Shown: positions 3,205 to 63,486 of the stretch, one piece after another
Layout: each line of letters begins with the position of its first letter
Position numbering within the stretch: position 1 is the stretch's first letter
Assembly: GCF_016026235.1 (NCBI RefSeq)
Contig: NZ_CP065613.1
Source: Escherichia coli
Lineage (GTDB): Bacteria > Pseudomonadota > Gammaproteobacteria > Enterobacterales > Enterobacteriaceae
Reading direction: 5' to 3' (one strand)
DNA: 64,000 nt
Made by a program: the position numbers and the translations under genes
Notes under the pieces: model-generated
Told to the model about the DNA's origin: nothing
The model's database searches: none
What the model saw: only the letters and a program-made list of their open reading frames with translations

Positions 3205-3332
3205 TGTTTTTTAACCTCAACTCAGATTAAAATTACTGCGAGTGATGAATAAATGTCCCAGGTTCTTCACTCAGGCCTGCACACTGTGCAGGCTTTCTTT
3301 TTTTCAGATTTCACCTTTTAATTTCATTGCAA

Positions 3333-3578
3333 TCAGAGTTGCCAGAAATTCGGCTTTTTTTCTGCGGGCAGATTATTTCCGATGTAAACCAGGCACATTT
3401 TTGTGGCACCTTCAACAAGAGTTTTAAAGTTTCCTGATAGACCGTCGATATCAACCACAGTGAATGGGGTTTCTTTATTTTCTGTTTTAATTACGTAGCC
3501 AATATGCTTTCCTTCCAGGTAAACCTCGTGAACAATGTTATCAGTAGTTGCAACAGTGGCTTCATAATTGGTGTTCAT
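3333..3578 (-). CDS. hypothetical 81-aa protein
   Basis: I prefer the internal ATG at 3578 (MNTNYEAT...), which is preceded by a strong SD (AAGGAGAAAAAC). The track ORF extends to 3626. Confidence 0.55.
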   Translation of the reverse strand: MNTNYEATVATTDNIVHEVYLEGKHIGYVIKTENKETPFTVVDIDGLSGNFKTLVEGATKMCLVYIGNNLPAEKKPNFWQL

Positions 3579-3652
3579 GTTTTTCTCCTTAATTAAGGTT
3601 GAGCGAATCCCTGCCATTGCTGGCATAAATTCAGTTTCGAATAGTCAGTTAA

Positions 3653-3934
3653 TTAAAGTTCGTGTGCCATCTGGTCTTTTTCGGCGCAGATTTCACTACA
3701 ATATTTGCGTTTCTTTTTCCTCATCATGGTTCCGTGCATGTAAATAAGTTCAGCAGTGTAAGCCTTATCAGGGCTTACTTGTCTGTCACACAGGCCATAA
3801 GCACAGGGAATTAAATCGGGATCACCTTTCTGCTGGAGGGTTTTTTTGATTATCCATAACAATTTTTTGATTCCGGTGTGTGTTATGGTCTGCTGAGGTG
3901 CAGAGGTAAAACAATAATCAAGCATAGGGTTCAT
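3653..3934 (-). CDS. small Cys-containing protein (possible zinc ribbon), unknown function
   Basis: 93-aa ORF in operon context with a C..C...C...C pattern and a basic KKKRK tract. Confidence 0.5.
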   Translation of the reverse strand: MNPMLDYCFTSAPQQTITHTGIKKLLWIIKKTLQQKGDPDLIPCAYGLCDRQVSPDKAYTAELIYMHGTMMRKKKRKYCSEICAEKDQMAHEL

Positions 3935-57101: not shown

Positions 57102-57725
57102 CTATGCGGCCTCGGAAGGAAGTCCAATCATCTTATTCAAATCTTCTACCCGTAAAGCAGGAAGTGCTGTACTTGCTTTATCTGCTTCTTTTGGTAGCAA
57201 TTCTTTGCTTTCAGGCCAAACTTCAATAAGTCGCTTAACTGTTGTGACTGAGTTCAAAGCAGCCCATACATTTGATTCGATATCCTTTTTCCTGGCTTTA
57301 AGTTTTTGTTGCAATGCGCAGATTTCATCAAACCTTTTTGTTATTTCGTGTTCTGCGCTAAACATGCATTTATCTCTGGTCGGAGTAGGGAGCAATATAT
57401 CTTCGCCGTTGCCGTCTTTCCCATATGAATACCATCCAACCCTTCTGCCAGATACAGTCAGATAAATTGAAGTAGAACGAACATCGCATGAGTAAAATGA
57501 ACATCCCATCTTTTCAAGTTCTTCACTTATAGCTACCAACTTGGATGATAACTGATCCACTTCCTCAGTTTTCTTCTTCCCGCCAAACGCAACAACTCTG
57601 GCGTCAAGTGCAAGCTGGTTCTTTAGCTTTGTTACTTCTTCAAGTTCAGTGAACACCCCGGACTTAATTAAAGCGTTGCGTGCTATTACTTCTTTTATTC
57701 TCGTTGTTAAGCGGATTGATGACAT
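57102..57725 (-). CDS. 207-aa protein of unknown function in the cIII-N accessory slot
   Basis: ATG 57725 follows SD GAGAGGA (MSSIRLTTRIKEVIARNALIK...). No family recognised with confidence. Confidence 0.6.
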   Translation of the reverse strand: MSSIRLTTRIKEVIARNALIKSGVFTELEEVTKLKNQLALDARVVAFGGKKKTEEVDQLSSKLVAISEELEKMGCSFYSCDVRSTSIYLTVSGRRVGWYSYGKDGNGEDILLPTPTRDKCMFSAEHEITKRFDEICALQQKLKARKKDIESNVWAALNSVTTVKRLIEVWPESKELLPKEADKASTALPALRVEDLNKMIGLPSEAA

Positions 57726-58350: not shown

Positions 58351-58421
58351 CGTAGATTCATATTCGAATCGTTGTATATTCACCGCCCTGGTGAGTAGTG
58401 CGTCCTGCTGATGGCTTAAAG

Positions 58422-58504
58422 ATAACCTAGGTTATAGCGGTGGTCAATAACTTAATTTATGGATTCTGATAAATAAGTTATAAGTGATGGATAATAAAGG
58501 TATT
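58422..58504. promoter_or_regulatory. OL operator cluster / pL region
   Basis: ATAACctagGTTAT (58422-58435), ATAACttaaTTTAT (58447-58460), a 13-nt variant ATAAAtaaGTTAT (58469-58481) and ATAATaaagGTATT (58491-58504). Same half-sites as at OR. Confidence 0.6.
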
Positions 58505-58620
58505 TTATTTTTGTAAATGTTGCGGATTGGTCGGTATTGGAAGGGGGGCGCTGTATTGCTGGCGTGTTGGTTCGTGGTTTACCGCATTTGCGGCTGTTAA
58601 ATATGGGGGACGATCGCGAG

Positions 58621-58650
58621 GCAAAGAAAACCCGGCGCGGAAGCCGGGTT
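58621..58650 (-). terminator. intrinsic terminator closing the immunity-region transcript
   Basis: Minus strand: CCCGGC-ttccgc-GCCGGG followed by TTTTCTTTG. Confidence 0.7.
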
Positions 58651-58665
58651 TGAGATTTAGTTATT

Positions 58666-58800
58666 TTCAGCAGCTCGGATAAGAGCGGAAGTGCTGACGA
58701 ACATGTTCGAGCTCACCGAAACGTATGCGGCAGTAACTGCGCACATAAACCGGCTTGTCGTGTTCGTAGATGAAGTCATCGCGATTAACATCGTGAGCCA
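58666..58800 (-). CDS. 44-codon ORF of unknown function
   Basis: Not in the track. ATG 58800 lies 7 nt after SD AGGAGA. MAHDVNRDDFIYEHDKPVYVRSYCRIRFGELEHVRQHFRSYPSC. Followed by the terminator. Confidence 0.4.
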
Positions 58801-58949
58801 TAGCTTTTCTCCTGTTTTTGTATACAGCCTGTTTACCCGAACAGGTTGTAGTTTGTTGGGAGAACCGCTATCCTTGGCTTGCGGTTGCCAAGGGTGTAGC
58901 GGTAGGTAATCCTCCATACACTTCGGAAATACTGGATATATTTCCGACC

Positions 58950-58974
58950 CAAAAAGCCCCGTTCCCTCGGGGCT
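58950..58974 (-). terminator. intrinsic terminator directly after orf177
   Basis: Minus strand: AGCCCCG-agggaa-CGGGGCT followed by TTTTT, starting at the base after the stop codon. Confidence 0.7.
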
Positions 58975-59508
58975 TTATTCTTTTGTTCCGCCATCAATCA
59001 TCGCAAAAGATTCCACAATCAGACTGATACGCTTGGCTTCATCTTTTGTCAGGTCGCGAGGCAGGTTGCCAATGGTGACGATAAGATCTCCGCGCAATGG
59101 AATCGGCAGTTCAAATGTTTTTACACCAACCTGTACGTCAGCTACCGCCTTCTTCTTAGGTGCCATCTTTTTACGCTCCTTTTTTTTATTTACATCACCA
59201 ACTGACACATTAATCTCACCATTCTGGTAGGAGATAAATTTATCAATAGCACTTTGCATTCGGCTTTTGTATGCCTGCAAAGATGATTCAGAAGGTTTGC
59301 TTTCTGCTGAGTCTGCGTACGAACTTGCTAAGTTGGCAACGCTATAATCACGGATATCGGCATCGGTGAAATCCGACCCAAGAACAGTAAGAAGGCGCAG
59401 GGAAGAGTCACGGAGATTGCGGGCTGTAGCATCATTGACGATACCAAGCTCAGGAAGCATCTGTAAGAAGTCCTGAAATGCTTTGATGGTGTAGCTTTTG
59501 GTTTGCAT
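58975..59508 (-). CDS. 177-aa protein of unknown function (rexAB-slot cassette)
   Basis: Clean ORF with SD TGAGG. Helical N-half, a basic linker KKKERKKMAPKKK, and C-terminal ...FELPIPLRGDLIVTIGNLPRDLTKDEAKRISLIVESFAMI. No family recognised. Confidence 0.65.
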   Translation of the reverse strand: MQTKSYTIKAFQDFLQMLPELGIVNDATARNLRDSSLRLLTVLGSDFTDADIRDYSVANLASSYADSAESKPSESSLQAYKSRMQSAIDKFISYQNGEINVSVGDVNKKKERKKMAPKKKAVADVQVGVKTFELPIPLRGDLIVTIGNLPRDLTKDEAKRISLIVESFAMIDGGTKE

Positions 59509-59535
59509 AAAAAAGCCTCATACAGTTGATGAGAC

Positions 59536-59564
59536 AATACTAATTTGATCGTCAAAACAAATCA
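59536..59564 (-). promoter_or_regulatory. sigma70 promoter internal to the cassette (pLIT-like position), driving orf177
   Basis: Minus strand: TTGATT (59564-59559), 17-bp spacer, TAGTAT (59541-59536). A 10-bp palindrome AACGATCGTT lies just upstream. Confidence 0.5.
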
Positions 59565-59697
59565 AGACCCAAGAAACGATCGTTGATTCCTTTCTTTGTG
59601 ACAATACAGTCAAATCAAGTTTTACAAGGATTACTTTTCTTCGATTACATTAAAGGCCGCACTTCTGCGACCATCCATCACCAAAATGTCTCTTCAC

Positions 59698-60039
59698 TCA
59701 TCCGAAGAAGCAGCAATCCGGGTCAGCACGCACAAGCTCAAGCGCATCAGTCAGCGAAAGTTCAGTACTGTACTGATGCCATTTCATATCCTTCCGCATC
59801 CAATAGATTTTCCATCTATCCAGAGAACGTATGTACTTGATTCTTGCTGATGGCAGGATGTTTGTTTCACCTGGGTTGCCCTGCCACACGGGGCGCTGTT
59901 CGCCGATATCTATCGTTTGGTCATTGATGCTATAAACAATATCCAGTTCATTGCGGATATGTTCAGGCGGCCTTATGCTTTCAATGAATTGGTGAACTTC
60001 TTTTTTGACCGCTTGATATTCAAGGTCAGTGAACGCCAT
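59698..60039 (-). CDS. 113-aa protein, DUF3024-like (rexAB-slot cassette)
   Basis: SD GAGGAGGA begins 37 nt after the cI stop. The C-terminal pattern ...IKYIRSLDRWKIYWMRKDMKWHQY...CCFFG resembles DUF3024 from memory. Confidence 0.65.
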   Translation of the reverse strand: MAFTDLEYQAVKKEVHQFIESIRPPEHIRNELDIVYSINDQTIDIGEQRPVWQGNPGETNILPSARIKYIRSLDRWKIYWMRKDMKWHQYSTELSLTDALELVRADPDCCFFG

Positions 60040-60076
60040 CTATCCTCCTCACCCAAACGTTTCTTCAGGCCACTGG

Positions 60077-60784
60077 TTACCAGCTATGCGATGACCAGAA
60101 TACTCTGCCAATAATCCTTACGGTTTTATGAAATTCATCTCTATCCATTACTTCATCCGGGTACTCTTCGCGATTTATTGATCTGATTATCACCGATGTA
60201 GGAGTGGCGATTAATGTTTTTACTCGCAACAAATCAGACTGGCAAATAGCGTAGGTTTTACCATCTCTGATGGTGGTATCTTGTGTGTTAACACCAACAA
60301 CATCGCCATCGTGAAGAGTTGGTTCCATGCTTTGACCTGTTACCCTTACCAGCTTGGCAGAACTTTCAGTTACCCCCATCTTTTTCAGATAGTACTTTCT
60401 GAAAACCAAAGAGAACTCTGATGATTCTTCTATCTCGCAGCTACCGCTTCCAGCCGAAAGCGAAACGTTAAGAAGAGGCAATGCGACAAACTCGTCATCG
60501 TTTTTTTTAATGTCTTCCCATACCACAGCTTTTAAAGATGACTCACGGATATTGGATGGTTCTTCATGTGTACCATCCCTCATTTCACCAATACCAGAAC
60601 TAAGCCATTCAGGGCGTACTTTTAAAGCATTAGCTAACTCAACCATCTTGCGAGATCCGTTTGTTTTACCGGATGACATCTTCTGTATGGCTGGCTGAGA
60701 TATTCCAACCATGTCCGCAAGCTGTGATTGCGACACCCCTGCCGATCTCATGGCTGCATTTAGTCTTTCTGCGAATGTTTTCAT
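60077..60784 (-). CDS. cI: CI-type prophage repressor (N-terminal HTH + C-terminal S24/LexA-like autopeptidase)
   Basis: HTH VSQSQLADMVGISQPAIQKMSSG, an Ala-Gly cleavage-type site (LSAGSG), catalytic GQSMEPT and a downstream Lys (LRVKTL). I prefer ATG 60784 (MKTFAERL...) over track start 60814. Confidence 0.85.
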   Translation of the reverse strand: MKTFAERLNAAMRSAGVSQSQLADMVGISQPAIQKMSSGKTNGSRKMVELANALKVRPEWLSSGIGEMRDGTHEEPSNIRESSLKAVVWEDIKKNDDEFVALPLLNVSLSAGSGSCEIEESSEFSLVFRKYYLKKMGVTESSAKLVRVTGQSMEPTLHDGDVVGVNTQDTTIRDGKTYAICQSDLLRVKTLIATPTSVIIRSINREEYPDEVMDRDEFHKTVRIIGRVFWSSHSW

Positions 60785-60796
60785 ATCCACAAATCT

Positions 60797-60859
60797 ATAA
60801 CTACGGTTATCCAAAGTAAAATAATAAAGGTTATTGCTATCTTTTATAACTTGGGTTAT
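60797..60859. promoter_or_regulatory. OR tripartite operator (pRM/pR region)
   Basis: Three 14-bp sites with 24- and 25-bp centre spacing: ATAACtacgGTTAT (60797-60810), ATAATaaagGTTAT (60821-60834), ATAACttggGTTAT (60846-60859). Confidence 0.65.
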
Positions 60860-60895
60860 CCTTGGTTATAAGTAATGGCTGAAAGAGGTATGCTC

Positions 60896-61120
60896 ATGAA
60901 TTTAGTAATTCAACGAGCCTTGAAGATTGTCGGTAGTCAAAAGCGGCTTGCCGACAAGTGTGGTGTAACGCAGCCAGCAGTACACAAATGGCTGAAAGGC
61001 GGGCAGGTTTCTCCAGAGAAAGTTACCGCCATCGTTAACGCCACTGGAGGGCAGATCAAGGCTTACGAAATTCGCCCAGATTTACCACACCTGTTTCCAA
61101 AACCGAATCAGGCAGCATAA
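60896..61120 (+). CDS. cro: Cro-like HTH regulator
   Basis: ATG 60896 follows SD AGAGG. 74 aa, with HTH SQKRLADKCGVTQPAVHKWLKGG. Confidence 0.75.
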   Translation: MNLVIQRALKIVGSQKRLADKCGVTQPAVHKWLKGGQVSPEKVTAIVNATGGQIKAYEIRPDLPHLFPKPNQAA

Positions 61121-61580: not shown

Positions 61581-61724
61581 ATGCGAAAAACGCAGGAAAA
61601 TAAACGCGTTAATCACCGAAAAGATGTGCTACGTGACCAGTTTTATCAGGGGGTTAATCCAGAAATAGCTGTGCCACTGAGAGAAATACTTAACAGGTAC
61701 AAAACTTCGGAGAAGTCAAAATGA
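61581..61724 (+). CDS. 47-codon ORF of unknown function
   Basis: ATG 61581 follows SD GAGGTAA. ATGA overlap with the O-like gene start. Below the track cut-off. Confidence 0.4.
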   Translation: MRKTQENKRVNHRKDVLRDQFYQGVNPEIAVPLREILNRYKTSEKSK

Positions 61725-62030
61725 GCATGAATCTTATGGCTAAGGCCATGAATATAAAGGTTGGCAACCCACTGAGAAAACTGATTCTGATTAAACTTGC
61801 CGATAACGCCAATGATAATGGCGAATGCTGGCCTTTATATCAACATGTCGCTGACCAGTGTGAGGTGAGCAGATCGACAGTAAAAAGTCACATTAGGGCA
61901 CTGGAAGAGATGGGGCTTTTGAAAAGGGAATGCAGAAGAAAAGGAGAGCTTAACCAGTCAAACGTTTTTTATCTGACGCTGGATAATGCACAACAAATCC
62001 CACCAGAATCAGGTGGGGCAGGAGCTGCCC

Positions 62031-63486
62031 TAGGGGGTGCCCCTATTAAGTTGTCAAGCATGTTATGACCCCTGCGGGGTATAAAAAGTCCCGTCGCGCA
62101 TCATGGCGAACAGAACGTCGCAGCGTCGTCTCGCCAGGGCGATAAGCGCCTGATTGTGTCGTTTTCCCTGACTCATTTTGCGGGTGTAGTAAGCCCTGGA
62201 GAGCGGATCCCTGAGCGCGGCGAAGGCCGACAGGAACAACGCCCGTTTGAGAGCTTTATTACCCCGTCGCGAGGGATGCTCACCGCGTATTGACGAGCCG
62301 GATCGCCGAGTTACCGGCGCAAGGCCAGCATAAGCAGCGAGATGTGCGGCAGAGGCGAAGGCGCGGCAGGCGACCTCGGTGAGGAGTCTGGCTGCGGTCC
62401 TGACACCGACTCTGGGCATACTGGTCAGGACCGGGTAAAGAGGGTGAGCAAGAACTCGCTGTTCTACCTCAAGCGCCACCTCGTCTCTTTGCTTACGCAG
62501 CGTGATGAGCTGGAGTGCCAGACGTGGCAGTACTACGGCAGCGGCATTCGTGCCGGGAACGACGACGGTTTGTTCGGCCAGTGCCTGAGCTATGTCTGCT
62601 GCAAGGCGTTTACCCAGACGAGGCGCAAGTTTGCAGAGCTGGGCTGCCAGCTTCTTCTCACCCAGCGAAGCGAGTTTTTCTGGTGAGGGATATCGCTGGA
62701 GAAGATCGAGTACCGCCGGGTGCTCAAGTCTCGGACCGAGAACGCGCTCCAGTGCCGGATGTATCTGGGTCAGAAGGCCGCGGATACGGTTGCTGGCCTG
62801 CGTTGTCTGTGCGGCAAGATCATCATCGAAGCCGCAGAGCATGGAGAGTTCGGCGATTTGCTCGTCAGCCAGTTTCAGCGTGCGTAGCGCGTGAGGCAGG
62901 GTACGGGCAGCTTCGGCAATGATGGCAGCGTCACGAGCATCAGTTTTAGCTTCACCGGCGTGTAAGTCGGCTATGCGGCGCATGGCCAGTCCAGGGAGGT
63001 ATCCGACAAGGACTCCTTCTGAGCGGGCAACGGCGACAGGTAACGCACCGATGGTAGCTGGCTGATCAACAACCAGCAGTATCTGACCATGTTGTTTCAG
63101 GTCAGATATTAGCGACCTGAGTTTGTTTTCGTCGTTGGGTAATGCTTTATCGAACAGGCGTTTACCTGAACGATTAATGGCAACAGCGTGATGCGTATCT
63201 TTACCGACATCAACGCCGATAAAGACCTGGACGGATTCGTAATCGCTGGATTCGGTCATTCTGTCTCCCTTGTATATGGGTTAACCAGATAACCACGGGG
63301 AGCAGGTACCGGCATCCACGTTACAGACGGTCCCGGCAAAAGTGCCTGACCTGACCCCTATTAGCGGTTACCAGCGCCCCACCAGACCCGGTGACATCAC
63401 CCCCCGGATCATGGACGACTGGGGGCAGTAATCATGCCGGGTCTGGCTGGCTAACACCCCATTATAAGGGGTACGAATAAAGTAAC
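62031..63486 (-). mobile_element. IS110-family insertion sequence (~1.46 kb; ends inferred from the flanking 16-bp repeat)
   Basis: A single DEDD-type transposase gene. 227-bp 5' non-coding end, 32-bp 3' end, no terminal inverted repeats seen. Flanked by the identical 16-mers at 62015-62030 and 63487-63502. Confidence 0.8.
62063..63259 (-). CDS. IS110-family (DEDD) transposase/recombinase
   Basis: 398 aa. The N-terminus FIGVDVGKDTHHAVAI...AKTDARDA is DEDD_Tnp_IS110-like. The C-terminal ...VGVRTAARLLTEV...AAYAGLAPVTRRSGSSIRG is Transposase_20-like. Confidence 0.9.
   Translation of the reverse strand: MTESSDYESVQVFIGVDVGKDTHHAVAINRSGKRLFDKALPNDENKLRSLISDLKQHGQILLVVDQPATIGALPVAVARSEGVLVGYLPGLAMRRIADLHAGEAKTDARDAAIIAEAARTLPHALRTLKLADEQIAELSMLCGFDDDLAAQTTQASNRIRGLLTQIHPALERVLGPRLEHPAVLDLLQRYPSPEKLASLGEKKLAAQLCKLAPRLGKRLAADIAQALAEQTVVVPGTNAAAVVLPRLALQLITLRKQRDEVALEVEQRVLAHPLYPVLTSMPRVGVRTAARLLTEVACRAFASAAHLAAYAGLAPVTRRSGSSIRGEHPSRRGNKALKRALFLSAFAALRDPLSRAYYTRKMSQGKRHNQALIALARRRCDVLFAMMRDGTFYTPQGS

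Follow-up and report, generated by a model that had tools for sequence, protein, structure and literature searches.

We analysed a 64,000-nt window of Escherichia coli DNA (contig NZ_CP065613.1 of assembly GCF_016026235.1), which is a lambdoid prophage, and within it the slot between the CI-like repressor gene cI and the OL operators, where lambdoid prophages keep genes that act during dormancy. Region 58400–60900 shares 99.8% identity with E. coli O39:NM F8704-2 and 94.9% with phage SH2026Stx1, and the minus-strand gene order is cro/OR, cI, orf113, orf177, orf44, OL/pL, N, an Nmad5 gene, cIII, kil, gam and bet. An initial annotation, made from the sequence alone, had placed three minus-strand open-reading frames (ORFs) between cI and OL, and the features it listed were all found again to within a base or two (Table 1), orf44 lying one base off the 58666–58800 first given. 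The CI-like repressor is borne out by its HTH_3 and Peptidase_S24 domains, as are the OL operators by the motif ATAAC-N4-GTTAT, present twice at 58422–58460; this motif has 10 matches in the window versus 1.65 expected, and five of the ten are at OL and OR. What did not survive is the reading of the three ORFs as a single cassette: by their distribution they form two unrelated units, the first being orf113, a DUF3024 gene, and the second orf177 and orf44 with a conserved structured RNA between them.

Genes at least 99% identical to orf177 and orf44 occur in five of 5,426 complete E. coli genomes, always together, and a wider query that included DUF3024 returned 369 of these genomes. Among 77 fetched loci tabulated by tblastn, about 45 orf177-family loci have no DUF3024 gene within ~6 kb; relatives without DUF3024 are found in Salmonella, Yersinia, Symbiopectobacterium and Leminorella, in phages that carry them in the nin region, in many viral contigs and in satellite-like elements. 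DUF3024 is found without orf177 in 933W-type phages, STEC299, Rahnella and Erwinia. Co-occurrence of orf113 and orf177, which had been proposed as a check on the cassette, therefore largely fails, each gene occurring without the other in many loci. Linkage is hinted at only by two alleles of the orf177 unit, ~40% identical, that both lie behind DUF3024 in this immunity type, an arrangement that recombination in a hot spot explains as well as a functional link does. The other allele is that of VT2-Sakai, in which orf22 is an orf177-family gene (38.6% identical) and the only intact gene between cI and N. At this locus (L089, NC_000902.1, 3000–4330) a decayed DUF3024 remnant lies upstream of orf22 and an unannotated 40-aa small ORF, of type A as defined below, downstream; in place of the latter the record has a 53-aa ORF annotated on the other strand, probably a spurious one.

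Table 1 Features of the cI–OL slot and its boundaries, in minus-strand order (SD, Shine-Dalgarno sequence; UTR, untranslated region; AF2, AlphaFold2; CB, core-binding).
Feature	Position	Strand	Description
OR	60797–60859	.	Three ATAAC-N4-GTTAT operators: 60797–60810, 60821–60834, 60846–60859
cI	60077–60784	-	CI-like repressor; HTH_3 and Peptidase_S24; anchors the pRM transcript carrying orf113
orf113 SD	60043–60050	-	GAGGAGGA; within the cI–orf113 gap
orf113	59698–60039	-	Full-length DUF3024; PADLOC candidate PDC-S43; phrog_3467
Hairpin 3' of orf113	59655–59672	-	GGUCGCAGAAGUGCGGCC (arms GGTCGCAGAAGTGCGGCC and UUUAAUGU); directly 3' of orf113; weak U tail
orf177 promoter	59537–59565	-	TTGATT-17-TAGTAT; sigma70-type; -35 at 59565–59560, -10 at 59542–59537
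5'-UTR hairpin and U6	59515–59535	-	3' arm holds the orf177 SD (GAGG); conserved with compensatory changes
orf177	58975–59508	-	177 aa; phrog_2602; CB domain, linker, C-terminal domain
orf177 CB domain	residues 1–96		Tyrosine-recombinase CB/SAM-like four-helix domain; confident in the AF2 model
orf177 linker	residues 97–129		Lys-rich, basic; poor AF2 confidence
orf177 C-terminal domain	residues 130–170		Conserved beta-beta-alpha (KTFELPIPLRGDLIVTIGNLPRDLTKDEAKRISLIVESFA)
Leader RNA	58802–58976	-	Conserved structured RNA between orf177 and orf44
Leader P1	58953–58976	-	GC-rich hairpin directly after the orf177 stop; terminator-like on both strands
Leader P2	58924–58946	-	
Leader P3, 5' arm	58897–58915	-	
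Leader P3, apical stem	58872–58893	-	
Leader conserved segment	58859–58871	-	AUAGCGGUUCUCC; includes the anti-SD
Leader P4	58824–58849	-	
orf44 SD	58807–58813	-	AGGAGAA
orf44	58667–58801	-	44-aa basic protein; type A small ORF; phrog_21154
Terminator of the orf177–orf44 unit	58629–58650	-	-15.8 kcal/mol; just upstream of OL/pL; conserved in relatives
OL and pL-like promoter	58419–58460	-	Operators 58422–58435 and 58447–58460; TTGACC-17-TATCTT at 58447–58419; lower boundary of the slot

The initial description of orf113 as DUF3024-like holds along the whole protein, which matches Pfam DUF3024 (PF11225; E = 2.4e-31, 108.7 bits with a cut-off of 24.9) with residues 4–113 on profile positions 2–112 of 112, and it is likewise a full-length member of PDC-S43 by the PADLOC hidden Markov model PDLC05018 (E = 7.2e-42, residues 1–113 of 113). 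PADLOC lists PDC-S43 as a single-gene defence candidate; we found no experimental report of protection against phage by DUF3024 or PDC-S43 in the literature searched, in which two papers name DUF3024, both as an annotation only. The predicted fold is an alpha helix, five beta strands and an alpha helix, and the closest folds are protein-binding inhibitor or immunity proteins, with PsiB one of many equally weak alpha/beta matches. No terminator-like site lies on the minus strand in the 37 nt that separate cI from orf113, as first claimed; the Shine-Dalgarno sequence (SD) of orf113 begins 27 nt past the cI stop rather than the 37 nt first given, which is the whole gap. The hairpin that follows orf113, absent from the initial feature list, is the end of a mosaic block shared with 933W, and because homologous hairpins at related loci carry U6–8 it is the probable end of the cI–orf113 transcript.

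Positions 59654–60088, which span orf113 and its flanks, share ~97% nucleotide identity with many Shiga-toxin 2 (Stx2) phages, and the same gene is the first after cI in the 933W type; 933W does carry stk in this slot, as had been stated, but not stk alone. Stx2a_F723, a 933W-type phage, has the order cI, DUF3024, a 153-aa ORF, the Ser/Thr kinase gene stk, a 54-aa ORF and N. In a 933W-annotated transcriptome the expression of cI, DUF3024, p23 and stk shifts together (PMC10789677), and stk is reported to be co-transcribed with cI (PMC3564112), which together argue that the orthologue of orf113 lies on the pRM transcript. DUF3024 follows S24-type repressors of two immunity types, and in STEC299 it is followed by DUF6978 and DUF1828 genes matching PADLOC PDC-M24A/B. 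It also occurs away from cI, standing alone in Rahnella at a prophage end after DinI genes, and in Erwinia at a prophage end with the cassette of 153-aa gene, kinase and small ORF, where DinI-family genes adjoin.

The slot itself is a hot spot for lysogen-side cargo, in agreement with the initial annotation. Prophages of the same immunity type, their cI being nearly identical, have six or more different cargos between cI and OL; alternative occupants include BstA, a PD-T4-6-like Stk and PDC-M24, which, like PDC-S15 beside the orf177 unit elsewhere, are known or candidate defence genes. Three E. coli prophages with nearly the same cI (L085, L086 and L087) carry in the slot, respectively, a pair of hypothetical proteins of 120 aa and 42 aa, an SDH-family Clp-fold serine protease with a 56-aa ORF, and a single 98-aa ORF, all of them uncharacterised and candidates for a similar analysis. 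From position alone, a role in defence or exclusion is plausible for the genes of the slot.

The genes in the window resemble lambda rexAB, 933W stk, BTP1 bstA and 434 hex in slot and orientation (between cI and OL/pL), in having a first gene read from pRM with no intervening terminator, and in ending with a terminator just before OL. Lambda also has pLIT, an internal promoter for the distal part of the rex cargo, to which the orf177 promoter may be likened. The resemblance ends there, as RexA/B, Stk, BstA and Hex have no sequence or domain relation to the ORFs in the window and these systems lack the structured RNA and ~44-aa ORF of its distal unit. The initial finding of no likeness to Rex, Stk, BstA or SieB was upheld by Pfam and PADLOC: neither gave such a match, including to the KilA-N and BstA_C domains of BstA (a true BstA lies next to a Yersinia relative of orf177) or to the Stk/PD-T4-6 kinase domain (which the 933W-type neighbour does match), and with the three ORFs neither Pfam, PADLOC nor NCBIfam returned a Rex family, whether the sensor RexA or the multi-pass membrane protein RexB.

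The second unit has a promoter of its own within the 189-bp spacer between orf113 and orf177, a length correctly given at first. This promoter is present one base from where it had been placed, and its description as good was overstated, as it matches the consensus at 8 of 12 positions and falls below the threshold of a consensus scan. It is kept upstream of relatives that follow DinI in Salmonella and a different cI in Yersinia, and this conservation across contexts is stronger evidence than the consensus match. GATC (Dam) sites at 59544–59553 and 59575–59584 lie in and just upstream of the promoter, and an inverted repeat, TTGAT-N11-ATCAA, overlaps its -35 and spacer; the sites and the repeat recur in the promoters of orf177 relatives from other genera, and may represent an operator or methylation-sensitive control. 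Just downstream is the 5'-untranslated-region hairpin, the second hairpin missing from the initial list. A transcript from the internal promoter would lack most of its 5' arm, so the hairpin would form only in transcripts from upstream and, judged from these positions, could insulate orf177 from pRM read-through.

The three-part layout first proposed for orf177, a helical N-half, a linker and a small C-terminal domain, was recovered. Its N-terminus is the four-helix core-binding (CB) domain of tyrosine recombinases, on whose helices polar or basic residues are conserved (T28, N31, Y80 and R83), and sub-threshold Phage_int_SAM matches recur among family members. No catalytic domain (R-K-H-R-H/W-Y) follows: the protein has only the linker and a 40-residue domain past the CB domain and no Phage_integrase match in Pfam, hence orf177 is not a recombinase. 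It differs in this from lambda Int, XerC/D and IntI, and its terminal beta-beta-alpha domain is absent from recombinases. The orf177 protein is a CB-domain-only relative of tyrosine recombinases, which places a type of cassette that the initial annotation could not name. The C-terminal 40 residues are the best-conserved part of the family (F.LPIPLR..L.V.I.NLP.DLT..EAERI, with R139 and P150 invariant), and the pattern suggests a strand-strand-helix element for dimerisation or DNA binding. Its succession of strand, LPxDL and helix recalls ribbon-helix-helix proteins, with only one helix following in a low-confidence monomer model and no Pfam ribbon-helix-helix match. The family is large: a word-based search gave 53 clusters in Enterobacterales, and a profile search of 1.84 billion representatives gave 1,121 at E ≤ 1e-3 and 446 at E ≤ 1e-10, members being nearly all 155–200 aa and matching end to end. 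A scan of genome contigs, for which the broad alignment proved too diverse a seed, found three loci only. Sequence searches of the PDB with two proteins and the family profile gave chance-level matches only, Foldseek of orf177 against viral models gave no significant match (integrases were top by probability), and a literature search on accession numbers, PHROG ids and the core-binding-domain idea found nothing relevant.

Between the two genes of this unit, the leader described at first as hairpin-rich is strongly structured, with a predicted fold of -73.7 kcal/mol and z = -6.96 versus shuffled controls, and the two terminators also fold as first claimed. The minimum free energy (MFE) structure occludes both the SD and the AUG of orf44. 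Relatives share the same layout: P1 abuts the stop codon and is followed by P2, by a long P3 whose 3' side bears the invariant AUAGCGG(U/A)U, and by P4 ahead of the SD. A covariance model built without the window recovers the window leader at 58799–58983 (49 bits, E = 1e-10) and also that of a chromosomal relative with only 27% protein identity. In an alignment of 15 leaders, fitted to the model in a way that favours the structure, the paired fraction of cells is 92.7% and both partners vary in 20 of the 39 pairs; none of 500 shuffles is as good, and slid controls reach 35–55%. The segment after AUAGCGG reads UUCUCC, UUUACC or UUAACC and has two complements, one in an upstream arm (GGAGG or GGUAAAC) and one in the SD (GGAGA or GGUAA), and across relatives this anti-SD, the upstream arm and the SD change together. 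P1 has an A run on its upstream side and a U run on its downstream side, the better U tract being on the opposite strand in most relatives, and could also be the end of an antisense transcript covering the leader; in the leader a consensus scan found no antisense promoter and none was convincing by eye. Rfam 15, searched with no gathering cut-off using the region and 200-nt slices of two loci, returned terminator-driven sub-threshold matches only; neither C4, P4 CI antisense RNA nor any other family gave a match at or near its gathering score.

Downstream of the leader, a small ORF with an SD lies 150–200 nt after the orf177 relative at all but two of the non-identical loci examined, and these ORFs are of three exchangeable types. 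Type A (40–45 aa) is orf44-like and occurs in the window, Salmonella, VT2-Sakai and others; type B (43–58 aa, PPGYRW..CR.R...ILDAH.YGY..W.F.V) in Yersinia and nin-region phages; and type C (44–54 aa), a CxxC...CxC zinc ribbon, in satellites, a tail-operon insert and ImmA loci. No homology among the three types was detected with hhalign. All are hydrophilic and basic, and none of the three products in the window has a hydrophobic segment. orf44 is better conserved than orf177 (72% versus 34% in Leminorella, 91% versus 45% at locus L046), with substitutions mostly at third codon positions, indicating purifying selection; these third-position changes imply that orf44 codes for a protein and rule out that it acts as an RNA. 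Two further ideas were dropped, zinc binding by orf44, whose Cys and His residues are not conserved, and an origin of type B small ORFs as arm-type integrase DNA-binding domains, for which Pfam gave no support.

The unit is found in widely different surroundings. It occupies the cI–N slot in E. coli, VT2-Sakai-type Stx phages and Yersinia, and elsewhere lies in the nin region between replication genes and ninB/rusA/Q (followed at one locus by the PDC-S15 candidate), at the end of a Salmonella prophage adjoining DinI and effector-like genes, and in satellite-like elements between primase-replicase and capsid genes; one relative is inserted antisense inside a tail operon, and one is a lone chromosomal gene. 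The satellite-like elements (L014–L017, L019, L063 and L066–L072) carry AlpA, DUF4222 and an AAA_25 primase-like gene, then capsid, protease and portal genes, with the unit between replication and capsid, and on the opposite strand they encode a 136-aa TSRQGTDGRV-repeat protein. The leader also occurs apart from orf177: blastn located it (71% identical; 56.9 bits with the covariance model) in ~47 other E. coli genomes, where it comes directly after an Xre–ImmA/IrrE pair and is followed by a type C small ORF and then a terminator. In E. coli O55:H7 RM12579 (L088, NC_017656.1), for instance, the leader (model R2) and a 49-aa zinc-ribbon ORF that RefSeq does not annotate lie at 3330–3655 on the minus strand, after Xre-HTH and ImmA/IrrE genes in the nin region, between hokD and DUF968/rusA/Q. 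That leader and small ORF also follow Xre–ImmA/IrrE implies a cartridge able to sit behind different regulators. Xre and ImmA/IrrE (COG2856) there stand in the place of orf177, which may fill the same regulatory position; orf177 has no helix-turn-helix or metallopeptidase domain, and the equivalence is positional only.

We read the locus as two independent accessory units brought side by side by recombination in a cargo hot spot, with conflict between mobile elements their likeliest business, and hold this with slightly less than even confidence. orf113 would be translated, along with cI, from a pRM transcript whose probable end is the hairpin at 59672–59655, and may act in phage exclusion or modulate a partner protein. 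The separate promoter would drive orf177, probably a dimeric, non-catalytic DNA binder, and transcription that passes P1 would enter the folded leader of ~150 nt. There, pairing of the anti-SD UUCUCC with the upstream GGAGG arm would leave the ribosome-binding site of orf44 free, whereas pairing with the SD and AUG of orf44 would occlude it, and these two alternative pairings would make orf44 a translationally gated output. As the large protein and leader are kept, the small ORF is exchanged and the cartridge also follows Xre and ImmA/IrrE, we take orf177 for a probable regulator or sensor and the small protein for its effector. The outcome might be superinfection exclusion, or abortive-infection-like or addiction-like behaviour from the prophage.

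The proposed gating resembles a known arrangement. In the c4 RNA of P1/P7 (icd-ant) and the CI RNA of P4 (seqA/seqB/seqC) an internal segment pairs with an upstream copy and with a downstream copy over the ribosome-binding site of a small ORF, and the leader is alike in outline through its covarying GGAGG arm, UUCUCC anti-SD and GGAGA SD. It differs in having no Rfam C4 match, no ant-like gene after it, no evidence of processing, and an upstream gene that codes for a putative DNA binder. Beyond the reading of two accessory units we entertain a bolder and rather unlikely proposal, in which orf177, leader and small ORF form a new class of conflict system of prophages and satellites: a dead integrase fragment that would sense or bind foreign or replicating DNA, an RNA gating an interchangeable effector of 40–58 aa, and a cartridge pluggable behind Xre and ImmA/IrrE. 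The three genes are already deposited as hypothetical proteins and DUF3024 is already listed as a defence candidate; by contrast, Pfam, Rfam, PADLOC, NCBIfam and the literature open to searching gave no account of the CB-only family, of its pairing with a covarying leader and exchangeable small ORF, or of the reuse of the cartridge behind ImmA/IrrE.

Several observations weigh against this picture. Location in a hot spot argues only weakly for defence, we found no experiment or database entry giving a function for any of the three proteins, and searches of Pfam, NCBIfam and PADLOC with orf177, orf44 and the type B and C small ORFs returned nothing significant. In the AF2 (AlphaFold2) model the confidence score pLDDT is 41–69 from residue 101 of orf177 onwards, so that the C-terminal domain is of low confidence. 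Many type B units in the nin region run with the early lytic transcript, which misfits expression strictly in the lysogen. Near-identical copies of the unit with a frameshifted orf177 occur in three IMG/VR contigs (L038, L039 and L040), one of them with an IS1 insertion (an InsA-like ORF) just downstream of the frameshift and no orf44 detected, thus orf177 can be lost. The ON/OFF reading of the leader draws on folding and on covariation judged by eye, and the MFE structures of several relatives leave accessible the SD and AUG that are closed in the window, making a switch plausible rather than proven. The covariance model from type A and C leaders missed the type B and VT2-Sakai-type leaders, which have an analogous layout; we therefore claim an analogous architecture and not a single RNA family for all units. 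Finally, the excess of G-U over A-C among leader pairs (29 versus 16) is modest and leaves room for an antisense transcript or a structure in single-stranded DNA.

Of the alternatives, the one that fares best, rather unlikely as we judge it, makes the orf177 unit a regulator of its own mobile element, with orf177 a repressor, an architectural factor or a recombination-directionality factor and the small protein a co-regulator, together tuning lysis-lysogeny, excision or late genes, as the recombinase-like repressors MrpR of SPbeta and SroF of phi3T might suggest. The surroundings are suggestive, as the unit adjoins cI in E. coli, Yersinia and VT2-Sakai and otherwise lies between replication genes and ninB/rusA/Q or just upstream of the capsid operon of satellites; Xre with ImmA/IrrE, behind which the leader and small ORF also occur, is a classical stress-responsive switch of mobile elements, and the type C zinc ribbons resemble some small phage transcription factors. 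Yet the unit has no fixed neighbour, being found also at prophage ends by effector genes, antisense in a tail operon and as a chromosomal orphan. Close phages of the same immunity type lack it and carry other cargo instead, so that it is dispensable for the switch, and MrpR and SroF retain the entire recombinase fold whereas orf177 has the CB domain only.

We consider it quite unlikely that the unit is an addiction device of the toxin-antitoxin kind, in which translation of the small basic protein, here a presumed toxin, would be blocked by the leader, by a cis-antisense RNA ending at P1, or by both, to the benefit of prophage retention. Sequestration of the SD and AUG in the MFE structure would suit such a device, as would a long structured 5' UTR with alternative pairings, a trait of type I toxin mRNAs, the better terminator of P1 on the opposite strand in most relatives, and small ORFs interchangeable under one RNA architecture; likeness to the Rfam model of the hok/sok region is weak and non-significant (E = 0.026 and 4.5). 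The small proteins are however hydrophilic and basic and not membrane peptides, neither the consensus scan nor inspection by eye found an antisense promoter, G-U pairs exceed A-C pairs on the sense strand, and a 177-aa DNA-binding protein is foreign to any type I system. A type II pair is made less likely by the 170-nt spacer and hairpin terminator between the two genes and by a C-terminal domain of orf177 that stays constant across small-ORF types.

A separate alternative concerns orf113, which might be a factor of lysogeny stability that damps RecA-dependent repressor cleavage or the SOS signal, and not a defence gene; we regard this as distinctly improbable. Its model is Hex of phage 434, encoded on the pRM transcript just after the repressor gene (which its ORF may partly overlap) and lowering spontaneous induction ~30-fold in a RecA-dependent manner (PMC3564112). 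The co-transcription expected for orf113 with S24-type repressors of two immunity types and the DinI-family genes that adjoin DUF3024 away from cI are consistent with it. Against it, many prophage cargos of no relation have DinI genes at their flanks (the Salmonella orf177 unit is one), the PsiB match is no better than many other weak ones, DUF3024 is also found with the stk cassette and well away from any repressor gene, and orf113 has no sequence similarity to Hex. Very unlikely, lastly, is one lysogen-expressed cassette in which DUF3024 works with orf177 and orf44: the VT2-Sakai allele behind its DUF3024 remnant and the presence of DUF3024 ahead of the stk cassette and PDC-M24, as a shared upstream component could be, speak for it, but against it stand the ~45 loci without DUF3024, the solitary DUF3024 of Rahnella and its single-gene listing in PADLOC, the hairpin and separate conserved promoter that divide the two units, and the decay of DUF3024 beside an intact unit in VT2-Sakai.

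The window brings together two unexplained genes that the two best-studied Shiga-toxin phages also carry, DUF3024 being found in 933W and the orf22 family in VT2-Sakai, the latter a large family with the DNA-binding domain of an integrase but without the enzyme, nearly always accompanied by the leader and a swappable small ORF. Three hypothetical proteins thereby become a defined, clonable unit open to mutational tests. Should the orf177 unit be a device for defence, addiction or switching, it would add a new architecture (protein sensor, RNA gate and mini-effector) to the conflicts of mobile elements, with consequences for how Stx prophages persist and compete in pathogenic E. coli; were it inert, the RNA motif would still need explaining.

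Other genes of the prophage carry features of their own. The Cro-like gene at 60875–61120 on the plus strand has YdaS_toxin as its top Pfam match (E = 3.6e-18), above P22_Cro and HTH_3; this is a family name and no sign of toxicity. Between N and cIII, a minus-strand gene at 57102–57725 encodes a nucleotide modification associated domain 5 protein (Nmad5, Pfam E = 3.9e-71; phrog_1965). Further along, an IS110-family transposase gene (DEDD_Tnp_IS110 and Transposase_20) at 62063–63259 on the minus strand abuts a 115-aa HTH_36 ORF at 61721–62068 on the plus strand, which resembles a truncated 5' part of a phage replication-initiator gene, so that the replication module of the prophage appears to be interrupted.

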